Of a DNA stretch of 64,000 nt, positions 15,492 to 61,345 are shown piece after piece (within the stretch, counting starts at the first letter, position 1; the number at the start of each line of letters is the position of its first letter). The DNA comes from Octopus vulgaris (lineage: Eukaryota). Under the pieces are notes generated by a model that worked only from the letters and a program-made list of their open reading frames with translations, was not told the origin of the DNA and ran no database searches. A program made the position numbers and the translations under genes. The stretch covers positions 58,280,001-58,344,000 of the forward strand of contig OX597820.1 of the NCBI GenBank assembly GCA_951406725.2, given 5' to 3'.

Positions 15492-18070
15492 ATATATAAG
15501 AGTTTATAAGTATTTATACACAGAGAGGTGACCCTTGTCAGGACGCCTTACATGCTAGAAATGGCAGCCAAACCCAATCCACGAAAAAAAGTAATTCCAA
15601 TGAGAATAAAAGCAAAAATTATTTATAGTCCTAACCAAACTCGAGTTTCTGTATTAATGAACAAATAAATTGATTTGTCATCCGTACTTCGTCAGTGGGA
15701 TCGCTAAGACAATGCTTAATTATGCAGCTAATACGTACCGAAATCACACGTGCTTGCTGCATACTTATAGATTATGTTTTCGAATCAACCGCGCAAGTGC
15801 AGTCACATAGTCAACGGTAGTTAATAAAATTATTTTCTACTCTAGGCACAAGGCCCGAAATTTGGGGGGAGGGGGGAGCAGTCGATTAGATCGACGCCAG
15901 TGCGTAACTGGTACTTAATTTATCGACCTCGAAAGGATGAAAGGCAAAGTCGACCTCGACGGAATTTGAACTCAGAACGCAAAGACAGACGAAATACCTA
16001 TTTCTTCATTACCCACAAGGGGCTAAACACAGAGGGGACAAACAAGGACAGACATAGGTATTAAGTCGATTACATCGACCCCAGTGCGTAACTGGGACTT
16101 AATTTATCGACCTCGAAAGGATGAAAGGCAAAGTCGACCTCGACGGAATTTGAACTCAGAACGTAAAGACAGACGAAATACCTATTTCTTTACTACCCAC
16201 AAGGGGCCAAACACAGAGAGGACAAACAAGGACAGACATAGGTATTAAGTCGATTACATCGACCCCAGTGCGTAACTGGTACTTAATTTATCGACCTCGA
16301 AAGGATGAAAGGCAAAGTTGACCTCGACGGAATTTGAACTCAGAACGTAAAGACAGACGAAATACCGCTAAGCATTTCGCCCGGCGTGCTAACGTTTCTG
16401 CCAGCTCGCCGCCTTAGTAAATAAAATTAAGACTGTACGAAAAAGCTTTGAAACCATGAAAATTTTACTGTGAAAATTATAAGGGTAGAATATTTAGAAA
16501 TATTTTCACACCGGTGGCTAGCATGCGTAATAAAACTCAATAGACAACATATTTTCATATATAAGAGTATATAAATATTTACACACAGAGAGTGGCCCCT
16601 TGACAGGACACCTTACATGCTAGAAAGGGCAGCTAAACACAAACCACGAAAAAAAGGCAATTCCAAAGAGAATGAAAAAAAAATATTTATAGTCCTAACC
16701 AAACTCGAGTTTCTGTATTAATGAACAAATAAACTAATTTGTCATCCGTACTTCGTCAGTGGGATCGCTAAGACAATGCATGATTATGCAGCTAATACGT
16801 ACCGAAATCACACCTGCTTGCTGCATACTTATAGATTATGTTTTCAAATCAACCGCGCAAGTGCAGTCACGTAGTCAGCAGTCAATAATAAAATTAAAAC
16901 TGCGTACCAAAGGGCTTTGAAATTGTGAAAATTTTATACGTGCTTGCTGCATACTTATAGATAATGTTTTCAAATCAACCGCGCAAGTGCAGTCACGTTG
17001 TCAGCAGTCAATAATAAAATTAAAACTGCGTACCAAAGGGCTTTGAAATTGTGAAAATTTTATACGTGCTTGCTGCATACTTATAGATAATGTTTTCAAA
17101 TCAACCGCGCAAGTGCAGTCACGTAGTCAGCAGTCAATAATAAAATTAAAACTGCGTACCAAAGGGCTTTGAAATTGTGAAAATTTTATACGTGCTTGCT
17201 GCATACTTATAGATAATGTTTTCAAATCAACCGCGCAAGTGCAGTCACGTAGTCAGCAGTCAATAATAAAATTAAAACTGCGTACCAAAGGGCTTTGAAA
17301 TTGTGAAAATTTTATACGTGCTTGCTGCATACTTATAGATAATGTTTTCAAATCAACCGCGCAAGTGCAGTCACGTAGTCAGCAGTCAATAATAAAATTA
17401 AAACTGCGTACCAAAGGGCTTTGAAATTGTGAAAATTTTATACGTGCTTGCTGCATACTTATAGATAATGTTTTCAAATCAACCGCGCAAGTGCAGTCAC
17501 GTAGTCAGCAGTCAATAATAAAATTAAAACTGCGTACCAAAGGGCTTTGAAATTGTGAAAATTTTATACGTGCTTGCTGCATACTTATAGATAACGTTCT
17601 CAGATCAACCACACAAGCGCAATCACATAGCCAGCAGTTTTAATTTTATTATTCACTGCTGATTACGTGACTGAACTTGTGCGGTTAATTTGAAAACATA
17701 ATCTATAAGTATGCAGCAAGCACGTGTGATTTCGGTACGAATTAGCTGCATAATTATGCATTGTCTTAGCGATCCCACTGACGAAGTATGGATGACAAAT
17801 TAATTTATTTGTTCATTAATACAGAAACTCGAGTTTGGGGTTAACTATAAATAATTTTTTTTTTCATTCTCTTTGGCATTACTCTTTTTCAAGGTTTGTG
17901 TTTGGCTGCCCTTTCTAGCATGTAAGGTGTCCTGTCAAGGGTCACCTTTATGTGTATAAATATTTATACACTCTTATATATGAAAATACGTTGTCTATTG
18001 AGGTTTATTACGCGTGCTAGACACCGGTATGAATTTTTTCATAAATTTTCTACCATTATAATTGTACACA
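15492..18070. repeat. complex foldback repeat: about 480-bp unit in direct copies, 126-bp tandem array, and an inverted copy
   Basis: Direct copies start near 15492 and 16559; 126-bp units at 16815, 16941, 17067, 17193, 17319, 17445 and partial 17571; 17637-18070 is the reverse complement of about 16469-16900. Confidence 0.9.
15833..16413 (-). mobile_element. trimeric SINE family A with 15-bp TSD
   Basis: Body repeated three times at 184-bp period (gaaaggatgaaagg at 15931, 16115, 16299); flanks tagttaataaaatta (15818-15832) and tagtaaataaaatta (16415-16429). Confidence 0.9.
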
Positions 18071-20599: not shown

Positions 20600-20860
20600 G
20601 CAAGGTTGTTTATGGAAGACCAGCAGTCGCCCATGCATACCGGCCTTCCCTCTCCTCGCCACCAGTGTTATCCAAGGGAAAGGCACAGGCCGATACAGCT
20701 TGGCACCTGTGACGTCGCAACTCATTTCTTCAGCTGAGTGAACTGGAGCAACGTGAAATAAAGTGTATTGCCCAAGATCACAACACGCAGCCCAGTCCGG
20801 GATTCGAACTCACAACCTCACCATCGTAAGCTCGCTCTAACCACTGAGACATGCGCCTTC

Positions 20861-20863
<3 letters not shown>
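20600..20863 (-). mobile_element. tRNA SINE with D-type head and a different tail
   Basis: Minus head gaaggcgcatgtctcagtggttagagc...gagttcgaatcccgg, then tttatttcacgttgctccagttcac as in family D. Confidence 0.7.
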
Positions 20864-20902
<39 letters not shown>

Positions 20903-20910
<8 letters not shown>

Positions 20911-21583
20911 CAACAATTGAGGGTAAAATTAATTAATTATTAATCAATTTCACCAAGTATTCAGTATGCAAAGGGACCCTTTAAGGCGAATTCAAATTAT
21001 TACATTATATAAAAGGGCTTAGTAAAATAAATTACTTTGCCACATACTGAACTCATTAGAAATAGCAGCCAAAAAAAACTTTTTTAAAACTATTTCTAAT
21101 ACTTAAAGAAAATCTCTCTCATATAGTGTTTGCTCAATTCAACTCACGAAAGTATGGGGGTAAAGACATTAAAAAATCAAATGCAAAGGTTATTTGAGAA
21201 CGTACGTTTCTAGATTAGTCAAATCGACATTTCTTTCGTCAGCTCAGAACTCCTTGGTTCGGATTTGGAAACACTGAAAGTGGGAGCATACCCTTTCGGC
21301 TTCTTATCGCTTCTGAAGATCTGCTCGAACTATCAGTGCCAGCAAATTCAAAATATGCAAGCGAAGAATTTCTGCTCTCCCCTTTCCACCAGCGTGGGTT
21401 AAAATCAGTAAACACTATGTTTTTTCGGTAAAATCCGAAGCATTAAATAGAGAGAGATGAATTATAATTTCAACAATTGAGGGTAAAATTAATTAATTAT
21501 TAATCAATTTCACCAAGTATTCAGTATGCAAAGGGACCATTTAAGGCGAATTCAAATTATTACATTATATAAAAGGGCTTAGT

Positions 21584-21589
<6 letters not shown>
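20903..21589 (-). mobile_element. 560-bp 1.2-mer (127-bp terminal direct repeats) carrying an HHR, inserted in (TA)n; retrozyme- or PLE pLTR-like
   Basis: 20903-21029 equals 21463-21589 with one mismatch; (TA)n on both sides; HHR at 21195-21246. Confidence 0.8.
21195..21246 (-). ncRNA. type I hammerhead ribozyme variant (long helix II, GUU site)
   Basis: Minus: ugag CUGACGA A AGA aau GUC gauuu GAC uaa UCU A GAAA CGUACG UU|cuca; palindromic ACGUACGU helix III; distal helix I aagg/cctt. Confidence 0.75.
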
Positions 21590-21631
<42 letters not shown>

Positions 21632-22689
21632 TAGAGATAATCACATAGATATATACAACTGGCTTCTTTCAGTTTCTGTCAATCAAATTCACTCACACGG
21701 CTTTGGTAGGCCCGAGGTTATAGTAGAAGATACTTGCCCTAGGTGCCACGCGGTGGGACTGAACCGAGATCATGTGGTTGCTGCTTGCCACACAGCCATG
21801 CCTACGCTCATAAATTGATTATTTTTATCTACTTCTTTAGTTTTACTTACTTCTTATCATTTCTATAATTGTTTTATTTTAAGTTTCTTTTTCGTTTGTT
21901 TTCTCGTGTTTTTTATTTAAATCTTTTTTTTGTTTCTTGTTTTTATTGGGTTTTTTGTTTGCGCTTTTTTCCTCAACTTTAATCTTTTGTCGCAATAGTT
22001 ATTTAATATAACGAAACTTTTTTCATCCTAACGTATCTACGAATGCTTCTGCTGGAATTCATTTCTAATCACTTTCGACATTTTCACATTCTTCCTACTA
22101 ATATTTCTTTTCAAAGTCTTCAACTAATGTTCTTTACACTGACTTCAACATTTGATCAATTCAAACATAAAACTCATATTTTAATCATATTAATAAATGT
22201 TGGGCTTGATTCATATTTATCTCCCTTCCGTTATACATCTTCTTTATTTCTAAACTATTTTGGTATCCCCTTATCTCTTTATGTGCTTTAAGCAAGTTAT
22301 TAATTTGAAACATCATTTTTAAGCCATGCATCTTTCTACCCAAACAATACACTTTAGATTTACTATCTCCACAATGAGAATTTCATCTCATTCTTTTTAT
22401 TTTAACTTTACTCTCATTTTTTATTTTTTTAATGTTTCTTTTTCATATTTAGCGGTTATATTGTCTCATTTATCTATTACATTATACCTTTCAACTCTTA
22501 TCTTGGATGAACGTCTTAAAAATAGACCCCTCTTAGCTTTTTTCTTTCCAATATAACAAGTAATTCTTTGGTTTCGTAACCACACACTCATATATATATA
22601 TATATTTAAATTTGCTCATAAAGACCCTTTTCTCCTAAGAAGAGAATTCTTTTTTGTAACTATCGATTATTCGTTTTCCAATGTCGTGT

Positions 22690-22916
22690 TACTCTTTTAT
22701 TTGTTTCAGTCATTTGACTGCAGCCATGCTGGAGCACCGCCTTTAGTCGAACATATCGACTCCAGGACTTATCCTTTGCAAGCCTAGTAATTATTATATC
22801 GGTCTCTTTTGCCGAACCGCTAAGTTACGGGGACGTAAACACATCGGCATCGGTTGTCAAGCGATGGGGAGAAGACACAGACACAGACACGCACACATAT
22901 ATAAATACATATATAC

Positions 22917-22972
<56 letters not shown>

Positions 22973-23130
22973 GACGAACTTCTTTCAGTTTCTGTCTATC
23001 AAATCCACTCACAAGACTTTGGCTGGCCCGAGGTTATAGTAGAAGACACTTGCCCAATGTGTCACGCAGTGGGACTGAACCCGATACCTAATGGCTGCTG
23101 AGTGAGCTACTTAACCACACACCCATGCCT
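22690..23130 (-). mobile_element. full-length SINE family B
   Basis: Both halves present with internal (TA)n at about 22900-22968. Confidence 0.9.
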
Positions 23131-23195
23131 AACTTTCTGTCCTTTCGCTAATAAATTTGAAAGTTCTTCAAAATCAAACCATCGATTTCTTTTCC

Positions 23196-23273
23196 GACTT
23201 TTTTTCCCTACCTAGGTCGAATGATTACTTAAACTTTAAGTAATCATTCGACCTAGGTAGGGAAAAAAAAGTC
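23196..23273. repeat. near-perfect palindrome
   Basis: 23199-23233 is the exact reverse complement of 23235-23269 (35-bp arms, 1-nt loop). Confidence 0.95.
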
Positions 23274-24134
23274 CTAAAAATAATTCTGAAACTATCCCCA
23301 TTATAGCTAATAACCTGCGCTTTTACTGTTCATACAATATCATCAGATTCGTCAGTTATGCCTTAATATATTTCCAGTTCTCATTTTCAAACTGCATTTC
23401 CTTTTACTTGATCATTTTCTGTTTATTTAAAGTTTATTAGAGTGTACATAAGTTCTATCTATTGTATAATTTTGGAGCTATGATCACCAATATATTTTTG
23501 AAATTTGTTCACTTTCTTATAAACATTTACAGAAGTTGACTTTTATAACCTTGGCATACTTTTATATACAATTATATATTTAAATTTTGCTTCTATTATT
23601 AATTGTGTTTATGTATTTATATTTAAGATTTATCTCTTTTGTTTTCTCCCTAAATATATACACAATTTATTGTATTGCTTCTCATCATATATTTTTTGCT
23701 CTGTACATTCTATATTTATTTAAATACGGTATTCTGTATATAAGCGTATTGTGTATATAAGCGTCTGTAAGCCTAAGTCTTATATGTTTATTTCCGTATT
23801 CACACACACACACACATTTGCGTGTGTGAGTGTGTGTTTAATTAGAGAAAGAAAGGGGGTTTGTTTGTTACATATATATTTATACGTTTCAATAGCTATA
23901 TCAGAATAATATATATAAACCTGGCGGGTGTTTGTGTCTTTATCTATCAATTGTTTTGTAGGAATTGTAAGAATTGACATTTTTATATGCTAATTCTCAT
24001 AGCTATTGATATAATCTGTTAATATTGCCTATAGAGGTATGTTGAGATAAATATATTCAATATATACTTATGTTTATAAACGTAAATTGTTCATTACTTG
24101 TATTTGAAGGTTAGCAATCAGTTGTATACTCTAG

Positions 24135-29856: not shown

Positions 29857-31828
29857 TCACCTTGATCACCTTGACCGACCAGTCCGTCAGGCGTCCATTT
29901 GACACCGCTGGTCACAGCACGCTGTCCACTCCTCTCTGGATCGCGCCTTTCTCATCCACGTGATCCCAATCGTCCTCCTGAAATCGTAACTCCACCGTCG
30001 TGGAGGTCTTCCGGGTGGTCTTTTCCGCTCACGCGGGTACCACTCGAAAACTGGGTGCGTCCACCGATTATCGGTGAGCCGGGCGACGTGTCCAGCCCAT
30101 CTATACTTGCTGCGTGTATACTCTGCGATGACATCTCTCACGCCGGACTTCTTTCTGATGATCTTGCTACTTATGTGCTCTCTCAACGAGATACCAAGCA
30201 TTGAACTTTCCATGGCTCTTTGAGCCGTTACCAGTCTTTGCTCTTCTCTCTTTGTGGTAGCCCATGTTTCACTACCATATAACATTGCAGGCAGAACTGC
30301 ACTGTTAATGAGGTTGGCGCGGGTGGTCCTGTCCAACCTTCCATTGAGCACATCCCTTATGCCATTGAACGTCTTCCATCCGGCCCTTACTCTCCGTGAG
30401 ATCTCCTTTTTGATATCCCGGCACATATTTACTTCCTGTCCCAAGTAGACATATTCCCTCACCTCCTCTATTTCATCACAGCCGATCACCATTCTACCTG
30501 TTGGTACATTGTCTGACCGCATGAACTTTGTTTTCATGCGGTTCATCTTGAGACCTACTGCAGAACTTTTGATGTCGAGCTCCGTCAGCATAGTCTGAAG
30601 CTGATCCATGTTTTCAGCGATGAGTACGATGTCGTCAGCGAAACGGAGGTGAGTGAGGAGCTCGCCATTGATGTTGACACCACCTTACCGGTCGATGCCT
30701 TTGATGATCTGTTCGAGACATGCAGTGAAAAGTTTTGGGGAGATTGTATCTCCTTGCTTCACTCCCTTCTCGACCGGCACTCGTATGGGTGATGACAGTA
30801 GAGTTATGTCGGTGGTGCATCCGGAATTTGCCTCTCTGAGCAGCTGCGCATATTGCGCTTCGATTCCTTGCCACTGCAGCGAGTTTAGCACTGCGTTGGT
30901 TTCGATGCTATCGAAGGCCTTCTCATAATCTATAAACGCAACGCAAAGAGGCAGCTTGTACTCATTTGCTCGCTCAAGCAGTTGCGTTAGAGTAAATAGA
31001 TGGTCCATTGTGCTGTAGTTCTTCCGGAAGCCTGCTTGTTCCTTCGGTTGTTGTTCGTCGAGACGACGTGACAACCTGTTCAGAATTATCTTCGTGAACA
31101 GCTTGTACACGTGAGACAGCAGGCATATGGGTCGGTAGTTCTTTAGATCTTCTCTGTCGCCCTTCTTATACAGCAGGATGGTATTTGACTCTTTCTACTG
31201 CGAAGGAATTCTTCCCTCGTCTAGATAGTGCGTAAATCGCTCAGCGAGGATTTTCCAGAGCTGCTCTCTGCCTGACTTTAGCATCTCCGATGTTATACCG
31301 TCTTTCCCTGGAGCCTTTCCGTTTTTCATCGAGCCGATGACTCTTTCAACCTCACTGACAAGGATAGGTGGCACGTTTTCTTCCTGTTGGAGTGGTGGTA
31401 ACGGCTGGACATTTCTGGTAGACTTAAAGAGCTTGGTGTAGAAGTCTTCACAAACTTTTTCCATCTCGCTCTTCTCGTTGACCGGTATTCCATCTGTATT
31501 TTTCAGGGCCGTCACCTCCGATCTATATAGTACCATGTCCCTCTTGCATTTCTTGAGGCTCTTCTTTTCCTCTGTGGCCTTCAAGAGCTTCTCCATCCGG
31601 TATGCCTCAAAGTCTTTCTTTAGTTGCTGACGAATCACTCTGCTGAGAATGGAATATTCAAGGTGATCTTCAATAGTCCTCTTCATATTTTTCCTCTTCT
31701 CGAGTAACTTAGTAGTTTCTTCCGAGATTCTTCCCTTCTTTTCTCTTGGGCATACTCCCTTAGCCTTCCTTAAACACTCCTTCAGTTTCCCTATCAGTGA
31801 GTTGTAGTCATCGTCTATGTCGTCTCCT
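29857..31828 (-). mobile_element. young 5'-truncated RTE-clade LINE
   Basis: ORFs 31195-31686, 30685-31110 and 29887-30609 share one frame split by only two stops; KAPGKDGI, NYRPICLL, QAGFR, DYEKAFDS, GVKQGD, LRFADD, YVYLG, YGSETW, WAGHVAR, GRPPRRW; tail ggtgatcaaggtgat into (TA)n. Confidence 0.95.
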
Positions 31829-38064: not shown

Positions 38065-38558
38065 TAAACAGAAAGACGAAATATTTCTAAGCATATCGCC
38101 CGGCGTGCTAACATTTCTGCCAGCTTGCCGCCTTGTTATATATATTTCTTTACTAACCACAAGGAACTAAACACAGAGGGGACAAACAAGGACAGACAAA
38201 CAGATTAAGTCGATTATATCGACCCCAGTGCGTAACTGGTACTTAATTTATCGACCTCGAAATGATGAAAGGCAAAGTCAACCTCGGCAGAATTTGAATT
38301 CAGAATGTAACAACAGATGAAATACCTATTTCTTTACTACCCACAAGGAGCTAAACACAGAGGGGACAAACAACGACAGACAAACAGATTAAGTCGATTA
38401 TATCGACCCCAGTGCGTAACTGATACTTAATTTATCGACCCTGAAAGGATGAAAGGCAAAGTCGTCCTCGGCGGAATTTGAACTCAGAACGTAGCAGCAG
38501 ACGAAATGCGGCTACGCATTTCGCCCGGCGTGCTAACGTTTCTGCCAGCTCGCCGCCT
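38065..38558 (-). mobile_element. multimeric SINE family A
   Basis: Two body+linker units with head at 38500-38558; a second head fragment at about 38070-38132. Confidence 0.85.
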
Positions 38559-50115: not shown

Positions 50116-50399
50116 GGAGACACCTTAAAATTTCAAACAAATTTTAATATAGGGTAGGACCGCCTTTGGCAGTAATTACGGCTTGAATTTACAAATACAC
50201 GCACGCACAGACACACATACACTCACACACAAATCTAATCAACAATCAATATTTAATACACATCAAATCGATCTTCAACCACAGTGTAGTAATTTGTCAC
50301 ACACTCATCGCATCCTCAAAAGGTAGGAAAGTCATAGAAATGTTTAGAGAGACATTTGGCAATTTACTTTGCACACTTATATGACTTTTATAATTTCAC

Positions 50400-51776
50400 C
50401 TTAGGTAATACGAAGTTGAGAAATATAGTAATTAGAGAAGCAACGCATTTATAATATTAAAAGTACTGAATAACTAAATAAGCCATTTTCCGAAGTATTT
50501 TCCACTCCAAATTTGACTACTCAGCGTACCTGCACAATTTATTGTTTCAAACTTTAATTCTTCATTTTTGATATAATTTTTAACCAAGTGATAGGTTCAC
50601 CTCAAATCATATATCTTCGCTCCATAATTTTAAATATTCCAAATACTTTTTTTTTAGTGTATTGTTTAATTATTTACTTTAATCATTTTAGTTTCCATCT
50701 TTACACACATCTTAAAACGCAAATTTCCTGAAGTATTTTTTATTAAATATTTTTAATTTCAATTTAATCCTTCCACTTATTTCCCTTTTACATCTGAATT
50801 CTTTTACTATTTTCTATATTTACTTAACCTAATCTCATTTACATTTTTTCATTTTTCTTTTCTTGCTCCCTATAATACTTTATTAATACTTCAATCATCA
50901 TTTTAATAAGAATAGGTTTAAAAAATTTCCCATACAATCTTTTTTTGTACCTTAAATATTTCATTTAGCTGCATATGTTCTTTTTGTTCTATTCATAACA
51001 AGGCTGTTTAATCCTGGTTTTAATTACAATCGTAATTAAATCTTTTTCTCTTTTATAACTCCTTTATTTCTCAAAATAATGGCTTATTTAGTTATTCAGT
51101 ACTTTTAATATTGCTCATAAATACACTGCTTTTCTAATTAGTATATTTCTCAATTTCGTATTACCTAATCCATTCACCTTTCTTGCTTTATTATGCATAT
51201 ACATTTTCAATTATTTAATTTTAACTTTAACCCCTTGTTTTATGCTTACACTTCCGTTTTCCACGAACTTCCCACAACCTATTCATTCTTCCATAAAATT
51301 CATTTGTGTTACAACTTTTCATCACTATCTTGGCATATTAACCTTTTAGCATGAAGTAATTATCCTAACTCGTTTATATTTACGTTTTCATCATTGATCA
51401 TTTAAATAACTTGTGACAGAATGAGTAAGTCCCAATCTCCAACTCATTGCCTAGGAATTGAACCTGAATCACCCGGACAACAAAATACTCAAAATAACCC
51501 CTCTCTGTCTGCGTGGGTTATTTTGAGTATTGTATTGTCCGGGAGTTTCCTCTTATAGTAGAAGAAATAGCTAAGGTTCTTTGGCTGCTATTTCTAAAGT
51601 TCGGTATGTGGTAAAGCAAATTTTTGCTGAACCCTAATTATAATTATACTCATAATTATAAAATATTGTTTAAGTTTACCGAAAAATGATCCTTTTAACA
51701 TGCCGAATACTACTTGGTGGAATTATTAATTACTAGTTAATTAGTTAATTTTACCCTTTATTATTATTGATTATAT

Positions 51777-60954: not shown

Positions 60955-61345
60955 AAACGAAGTCATCGGCACTGAGTAGGTCCCACAGGCAACTGGTCTT
61001 AAATTCCTCTGTCATGGCTTGGAGGACTATGAAGAATAGGAGGAGACTGAGAATCGAGCCCTGGTCGACTTCTACACTAAATTTATTGTTGTTCTCGTTA
61101 CTACCTCTCACATGCCTGACGGCGGCCTTGTACAATGCTTGTATATCTCTCACAAGTCATTCGCCTACCCGTAGCTCTCTCAAGAACCTCTAGATCACAA
61201 AGCGAAAGGCCTTGTCTATGGCTTTCTCTAGGTCAACGAATGCTAAGCACAATGGTTTGATTTTACTTAAATAATTCTTTTGCAGTTGCTTTATTAGAAA
61301 GATGACATCAACAGTGCTTCTCCCTGGCACAAAACCAAACTGCAA
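60955..61345 (-). pseudogene. non-LTR (RTE-related) RT fragment
   Basis: LQFGFVPGRSTVDVIF, AFVDLEKAID, VDQGSILSLLLF, LLSADDFV with in-frame stops. Confidence 0.85.

Follow-up and report, generated by a model that had tools for sequence, protein, structure and literature searches.

The window, meaning the whole stretch of 64,000 nucleotides of Octopus vulgaris DNA analysed here, carries at 20903..21589 a single-armed insertion comprising 1.23 units of a 560-nt repeat, with its RNA sense on the minus strand. Family RNA is numbered from the predicted hammerhead cut (position 1 is window 21198); in these terms the copy starts at site A (position 296), runs back through 1 and 560, and reaches about position 170, where it was 5'-truncated during a second pass. 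The 127-bp terminal direct repeats (RNA 170-296) lie on the minus strand at 20903..21029 (the 3' copy) and 21463..21589 (the 5' copy, an overrun beyond one unit) and differ solely at 20979/21539; the mismatch, at 20979, is private to the 3' unit (1 of 135 unit segments). Such terminal repeats are not LTRs, because their length varies with 5' truncation. The (TA)n target extends over 20864..20906 on the 3' side and 21587..21628 on the 5' side, and the first four bases of the element, TATA, are common to element and flank. A sequence-only reading had described direct repeats with one mismatch, a 560-bp period, pure (TA)n on both flanks, a single hammerhead in the unique middle and no open reading frame; all of these hold, the longest stop-to-stop frame inside the element being 70 aa. 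The (TA)n flanks adjoin very high-copy short repeats, as judged by depth, at 20600-20863 and 21650-21800, which are likely SINEs.

The hammerhead (21195..21246, minus strand, outside the repeats) is a minimal type I motif with a CUGACGA and GAAA core, a 4-bp stem I and a 2-bp stem III with a palindromic loop; the predicted cut follows GUU, between 21199 and 21198. A search of the window with Rfam returned nothing at gathering score and no hammerhead even at E<=10, so the call is based on the motif itself, covarying stems in a sister family, and constraint. The motif is present in 129 unit segments of the family. Inherited alleles occur at none of the 11 core sites; with the stems included the count is 2 of 26 sites, compared with 165 of 477 sites outside (p=0.002, in a test picked after seeing the data). 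The first pair of stem II (RNA 524/548; window 21235/21211) is non-paired in 72 of 84 loci; among the 84 it is T.T in 53, A.A in 18 and T-A in 11, both sides changing without pairing. With its GUU site, its unpaired stem II start and the silence of Rfam, the predicted ribozyme looks weak on paper. The family RNA, folded as a circle, has z=-5.4 against 40 shuffles. Because it has one hammerhead, the window copy would be unable to release its own monomer. Other hammerhead-type motifs with palindromic stem III loops were seen at L240, L159, L251, L246, L249 and L170, some in pseudo-LTRs and some in perfect inverted pairs.

A similarity search of the 2.8-Gb genome gave 2190 first-look candidates, of which 40 were scored, the top matches being 96-99% identical. 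The longest family arrays have 14 units of 560 nt. The earlier description of the element as retrozyme-like, ORF-free and multimeric is supported. Exact junction patterns on the forward strand matched site A 758 times and a second fixed end, site B, 535 times, with no matches to reversed controls; reverse-strand junction counts are inflated by overlapping matches, and the family size of about 2,000 loci is an estimate made by doubling the forward counts and subtracting pairs. The family is young. We mapped the window copy and 114 loci (about 6% of the family). Two similarity searches supplied 54 of these, a set biased to close relatives and to site A; the other 60 were taken from junction lists for one contig (C1), and each has at least one canonical end by construction. 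The mapping leaves out L086 (a near-duplicate of L085), the second copy at L207, and L070 (which overlaps L046), and variant counts leave out homopolymer and end positions.

The 3' ends of the arms are fixed, and the 5' ends are scattered round the unit. Site A (RNA about 296; 20903..20912, minus strand) is UA-rich and joined to (TA)n, with 90 mapped arm ends at exactly RNA 296, and is taken here to be a start of reverse transcription. Site B (RNA 193-209, mode 198) corresponds to 20990..21006 on the minus strand, a segment in which the window copy has no end. The sites are internal and 98 nt apart, and since both are UA-rich they would be able to pair with the target. In the similarity set (n=91 arm ends), 44 ends are at A, 38 at B (counted over RNA 190-209) and 9 elsewhere; TA repeats adjoin 80 of these 82 A or B ends, at loci not picked by their ends. 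The 98-nt "tail" between the sites contains a predicted 15-bp AU-rich hairpin (20922..20954, minus strand), a putative protein-binding region, within a core of about 170 nt kept in sister families. Arms from A stop near B more often than elsewhere: 10 of the 51 arms at risk do so, compared with 0-10% for the other 30-nt bins, and TA microhomology may contribute to these stops. Where an arm exceeds one unit, it continues into the unit again. The genome-wide alignment that had been proposed to decide between a circle and a pseudo-LTR yields the pattern of neither: 3' ends are fixed at two sites, 5' ends vary, and none of the 114 loci is joined to a reverse transcriptase.

Most insertions consist of two inverted arms with their 3' ends outward. 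The C1 set includes 44 such insertions, 41 of them pairing A with B, none A with A, one scored as B with B (L195, a complex locus with a detached A piece) and two with one odd end. In the similarity set 27 of 33 two-armed insertions are A+B, four have one odd end and two run beyond the fetched stretch, with no A+A or B+B; raw junction lists (41 A and 34 B junctions) contain 20 A+B pairs and none of either like kind. These inverted A+B inserts are the "tail" signature of Penelope elements on a non-LTR retrozyme. In 14 of 63 simple A+B inserts (a count that omits four pairs with a middle piece), the stops of the two arms fall no more than 10 nt from a common RNA position, compared with a mean of 2.7 and a maximum of 11 in 20,000 permutations; two of the 14 are ambiguous, their stops lying within the RNA's own hairpin. 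This co-termination suggests that both arms come from one template, and run-off at the 5' end of a linear RNA fits it too.

The second arm could also arise at the DNA level, one arm being reverse-transcribed and the other being copied from this first cDNA by fold-back and departing for the target at the remaining UA-rich site. Fold-back would likewise yield A+B pairs, and many junctions are near-perfect palindromes, some at self-complementary words or at an RNA hairpin (L187, L196, L062 and L055). We consider this origin unlikely: single arms in the C1 set are A-only in 14 cases and B-only in 6, so both sites act as starts; 44 of the 63 arm-arm junctions join positions more than 25 nt apart; and L227 is a blunt palindrome without overlap.

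Passage through the cleavage site bears on the form of the template. Fifty of 52 arms run through it; of the 188 5' ends, 5 are found 10 nt or less from the site, where 6.7 would be expected. Cleaved linear monomers are thus not the usual template, because arms pass the site without stopping; a cleaved monomer was rejected as template for want of a 5'-end pile-up at the cut, exact template jumping remaining compatible. When laps within arms were compared (88 arms, 20,721 sites), a family allele was common to every lap in 401 cases and mixed in 41, of which L091 supplied 10; for private alleles the corresponding numbers are 20 and 84. Median divergence is 0.47% between laps and 0.44% between arms (p=0.81, n=42), tenfold below the 4.7% between loci, so the laps date from insertion; this rejects arrays built mainly after insertion. 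The pooled figures that accompany this per-locus comparison, 0.43% and 0.94%, are driven by L046 and L084. Between arms, comparing the same unit or different units gives no per-locus difference (p=0.90, n=33), and same-unit sites are discordant in 48 cases and shared in phase in 2; the pooled version is significant (0.60% against 1.26%) from L046 alone, and without that locus the counts are 70/12,779 and 64/10,386.

Taken together, lap agreement, independence of unit position, constraint on the ribozyme and passage through the cut site favour a single unit copied again and again, as would happen on a circle, and on this family-level evidence from genomic copies the template was probably circular. 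The 1.2-mer in the window is by itself no proof of a circle, because its left end is the fixed priming site A; of the earlier proposal of a circularly permuted copy, the circle thus gains support at the level of the family, and random permutation does not stand. Unit variants shared by a subset of units in L091, L061, L058 and L046 count against a circle, since a single monomer circle cannot yield them without later conversion or expansion. In the 14-unit array at L046 (1279-8932), unit variants recur roughly every third unit, which may reflect a trimeric template or later unequal exchange; in L091, two haplotypes of the unit alternate from arm to arm with a one-unit shift, and a mixed template or gene conversion may be responsible.

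With the element and its two priming sites unchanged, the template could instead be linear and uncleaved, transcribed from a tandem array that is young and uniform; arrays would then be renewed by template jumping, or by unequal exchange after insertion. A common linear 5' end would account for arms that co-end after more than one lap (L187, L091, L062, L041 and L213); two alleles that are in phase between arms and are not in all units (L061 and L091) and the subset-shared variants of L046 point the same way, and uncleaved RNA was the main substrate in vitro in the portion of PMC11167929 available. We judge a linear template somewhat unlikely in view of the discordance of same-unit sites and their per-locus equality with different-unit sites, the equal age of laps and arms, and the constraint on the ribozyme core; moreover, with arms of 245 nt at the median, arrays copied solely from linear RNA would lose length in every round.

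A source of reverse transcriptase was sought beside the element and across the genome. The sequence-only reading placed a decayed reverse transcriptase at 21850-23750 and considered that the element might belong to it. That stretch is Pfam-negative in the three minus-strand frames, and tblastn with two Penelope-type proteins and eight LINE-type frames of the same genome gave no match; a separate search gave two 15-20-residue matches at E~0.01. The segment 21800-22700 is single-copy in the genome and has single-copy depth in sequencing runs of two other organisms. Neither claim is supported. None of the 114 family loci is joined to a reverse transcriptase.

Penelope-type elements are intact in this genome: 16 of 150 scored GIY-YIG matches (of 6136 candidates) lie in 781-aa frames. 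Eight 781-aa elements are 95-100% identical to the query and encode RT and GIY-YIG, mostly with (TA)n ends, one having a tail of about 40 nt. This young element (L157 944-6160; L154-L161) also has a second frame, upstream and overlapping, that reaches 479 aa and matches no Pfam family convincingly, and its pseudo-LTR lacks a canonical hammerhead core. Despite its abundance it was rejected as partner on account of its different pseudo-LTR and its tail of about 40 nt. Matches to the core profile near Penelope frames are separate (TA)n inserts (L163 from its sequence; L131, L150, L042 and L246 by position). L106/L234 was likewise set aside, since there a sister copy abuts an element that is 5'-truncated and has no core at its own 3' end; at L234 (2299-4432) the B end of the sister-family insert abuts the 5'-truncated Penelope-type RT, possibly as a nested insertion or through template switching. 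Across about 70 Penelope-type loci, most of them taken from the 150 scored GIY-YIG candidates (of 6136), no pseudo-LTR matches the core. Because the pseudo-LTRs examined do not match, the mobilising enzyme is inferred from end structure.

These data bear also on a reading in which the repeat is the pseudo-LTR of an autonomous Penelope-like element and the loci are its 5'-truncated tandem or inverted copies. According to PMC8557442, Penelope-like elements typically have tandem and inverted arms, a one-end tail and (TA)n targets. We regard this reading as very improbable: arms that exceed one unit re-enter it; within the 6% of loci mapped, a Penelope protein match is found at one of 114, and 3.2 kb away; and the neighbouring stretch has no RT signal and is in part single-copy.

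The family is of a known kind, a retrozyme type with Penelope-type ends, and both the class and the circle model are already published. In the text consulted, PMC7229834 defines metazoan non-LTR retrozymes, detects circles by northern blot and proposes their reverse transcription by Penelope enzymes; PMC7761336 gives a model of multimers copied from circles and states that such repeats carry no motif that would point to their partner. A preprint (10.64898/2026.07.22.740005) links retrozymes to pseudo-LTRs in vertebrates through co-occurrence and phylogeny, and the word "priming" was absent on a word search of its available text. Like the retrozymes of PMC7229834 and PMC7761336, as far as those sources were available, the octopus family consists of short, non-coding tandem units with one type I hammerhead each, low in GC and dispersed as arrays in a genome with Penelope-like elements. 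It differs in its 560-nt unit, compared with reported units of about 170-400 nt and a range of about 150-450 nt from PMC7229834 (which is descriptive and no definition), in its minimal hammerhead, and in that fixed priming sites, inverted arms and (TA)n targeting have been mapped; its circle is proposed from genomic copies. The number of hammerheads expected of a non-LTR retrozyme is found at 14 of 60 C1 loci; the window copy, with one, falls short of it.

The family also resembles Penelope-like elements as described in PMC8557442 and PMC11167929: these have partial tandems with an inverted 5'-truncated arm, an extension (30-40 bp in PMC8557442) that is often confined to one end, targets that are AT-rich or (TA)n, and a hammerhead near the end. 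PMC11167929 describes a tail delimited by two internal starts, reports that both strands are cut and extended, and predicts a dimer; for one Penelope element in vitro, the ribozyme was dispensable and start sites were alike on both strands, which counts against the reading favoured here. The octopus family shows two features expected of a non-autonomous Penelope-like element, namely tandem and inverted structure with a tail at one end and AT-rich or microsatellite targets, and lacks the RT and GIY-YIG frame between pseudo-LTRs of an autonomous one. Unlike Penelope-like elements it has no ORF, and its tail is about 98 nt instead of 30-40. It starts at UA-rich sites that resemble the target; the anole Penelope element of PMC11167929 starts instead at a non-homologous AC-rich stem-loop, with no difference between strands; one-A-one-B pairing and co-termination have been counted in the octopus family. 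Chlamys elements such as MRC1 (PMC8557442, as accessible) are also non-autonomous, Penelope-type and inserted in head-to-tail multicopy form; they resemble their autonomous partner at the 3' end, whereas the octopus family matched none of about 70 loci, and the Chlamys clade, unlike this family, lacks canonical hammerheads. The additions made here are the long unit and tail and evidence, in counts, for priming of the two target strands at a pair of fixed sites on one template. Our literature search on twin priming, circle templates and end mapping in such elements found nothing closer; older work may describe the pairing rule, and supplements may already list these families or the one-end tail rule.

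In L1 twin priming, two target strands prime on one RNA, giving an inverted arm. The octopus family is unlike L1 in that its second site is fixed, its arms overlap in the template and they can exceed one unit.

We therefore favour, as probable, a reading in which the window holds one insertion of a young, protein-free 560-nt family, written into (TA)n by a borrowed Penelope-type RT-endonuclease from a one-unit RNA that was likely circular. The two alternatives of the earlier reading then look compatible, the element being a retrozyme moved by Penelope-type machinery. Arrays with at least two hammerheads would release monomers, which a host ligase would close. A Penelope-type protein, perhaps a dimer, would bind the conserved core and cut both (TA)n strands, which would then prime on a single RNA, one at A and one at B, and each cDNA could continue beyond one unit. 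Joining of the two cDNA ends would give a two-armed inverted insert; joining of one arm alone to the target would give an insertion of the window type. The more specific proposal, that a Penelope-type dimer primes both TA strands at two fixed sites on a ribozyme-made circle and runs round it, is put forward tentatively; if true, it would explain the Penelope tail, the inverted arms and the retrozyme arrays in one mechanism. Priming and integration of animal retrozymes are called open in PMC7761336 and PMC7229834, as is the origin of tandem and inverted Penelope inserts with a one-end tail in PMC8557442. A young, ORF-free, high-copy family offers countable footprints of these steps (two fixed starts, strict pairing, common stops and single-haplotype laps) and names exact RNA sites and a 560-nt substrate for in vitro work.

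Several related families have in common the core of about 170 nt upstream of site A. A sister hammerhead family (L105-L123; 2664 first-look candidates) has a unit of about 500 bp, a long stem II and a GUC site, and shows the same two-end, inverted pattern; its hammerhead stems differ in sequence yet stay paired. A truncated copy of this family, with the common 3' core, lies in the window at 51500..51770 (plus strand) and ends in (TA)n at the equivalent of site A. The T-rich stretch beside it (50250-51500) was Pfam-negative, and 50400-51499 matches only itself. Further families with the core occur at L163 (6350-6650 and 7440-7690), L131 (2500-2800), L042 (6254-6701) and L246 (6450-6621), several of them as short inverted inserts in (TA)n. 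The window also contains a 126-bp array of 6.5 copies at 98% (16815-17638), two 184-bp tandem repeats (15880-16366 and 38143-38507) and decayed pieces of LINE-type reverse transcriptase on the minus strand (30067-31353 and 60962-61231).
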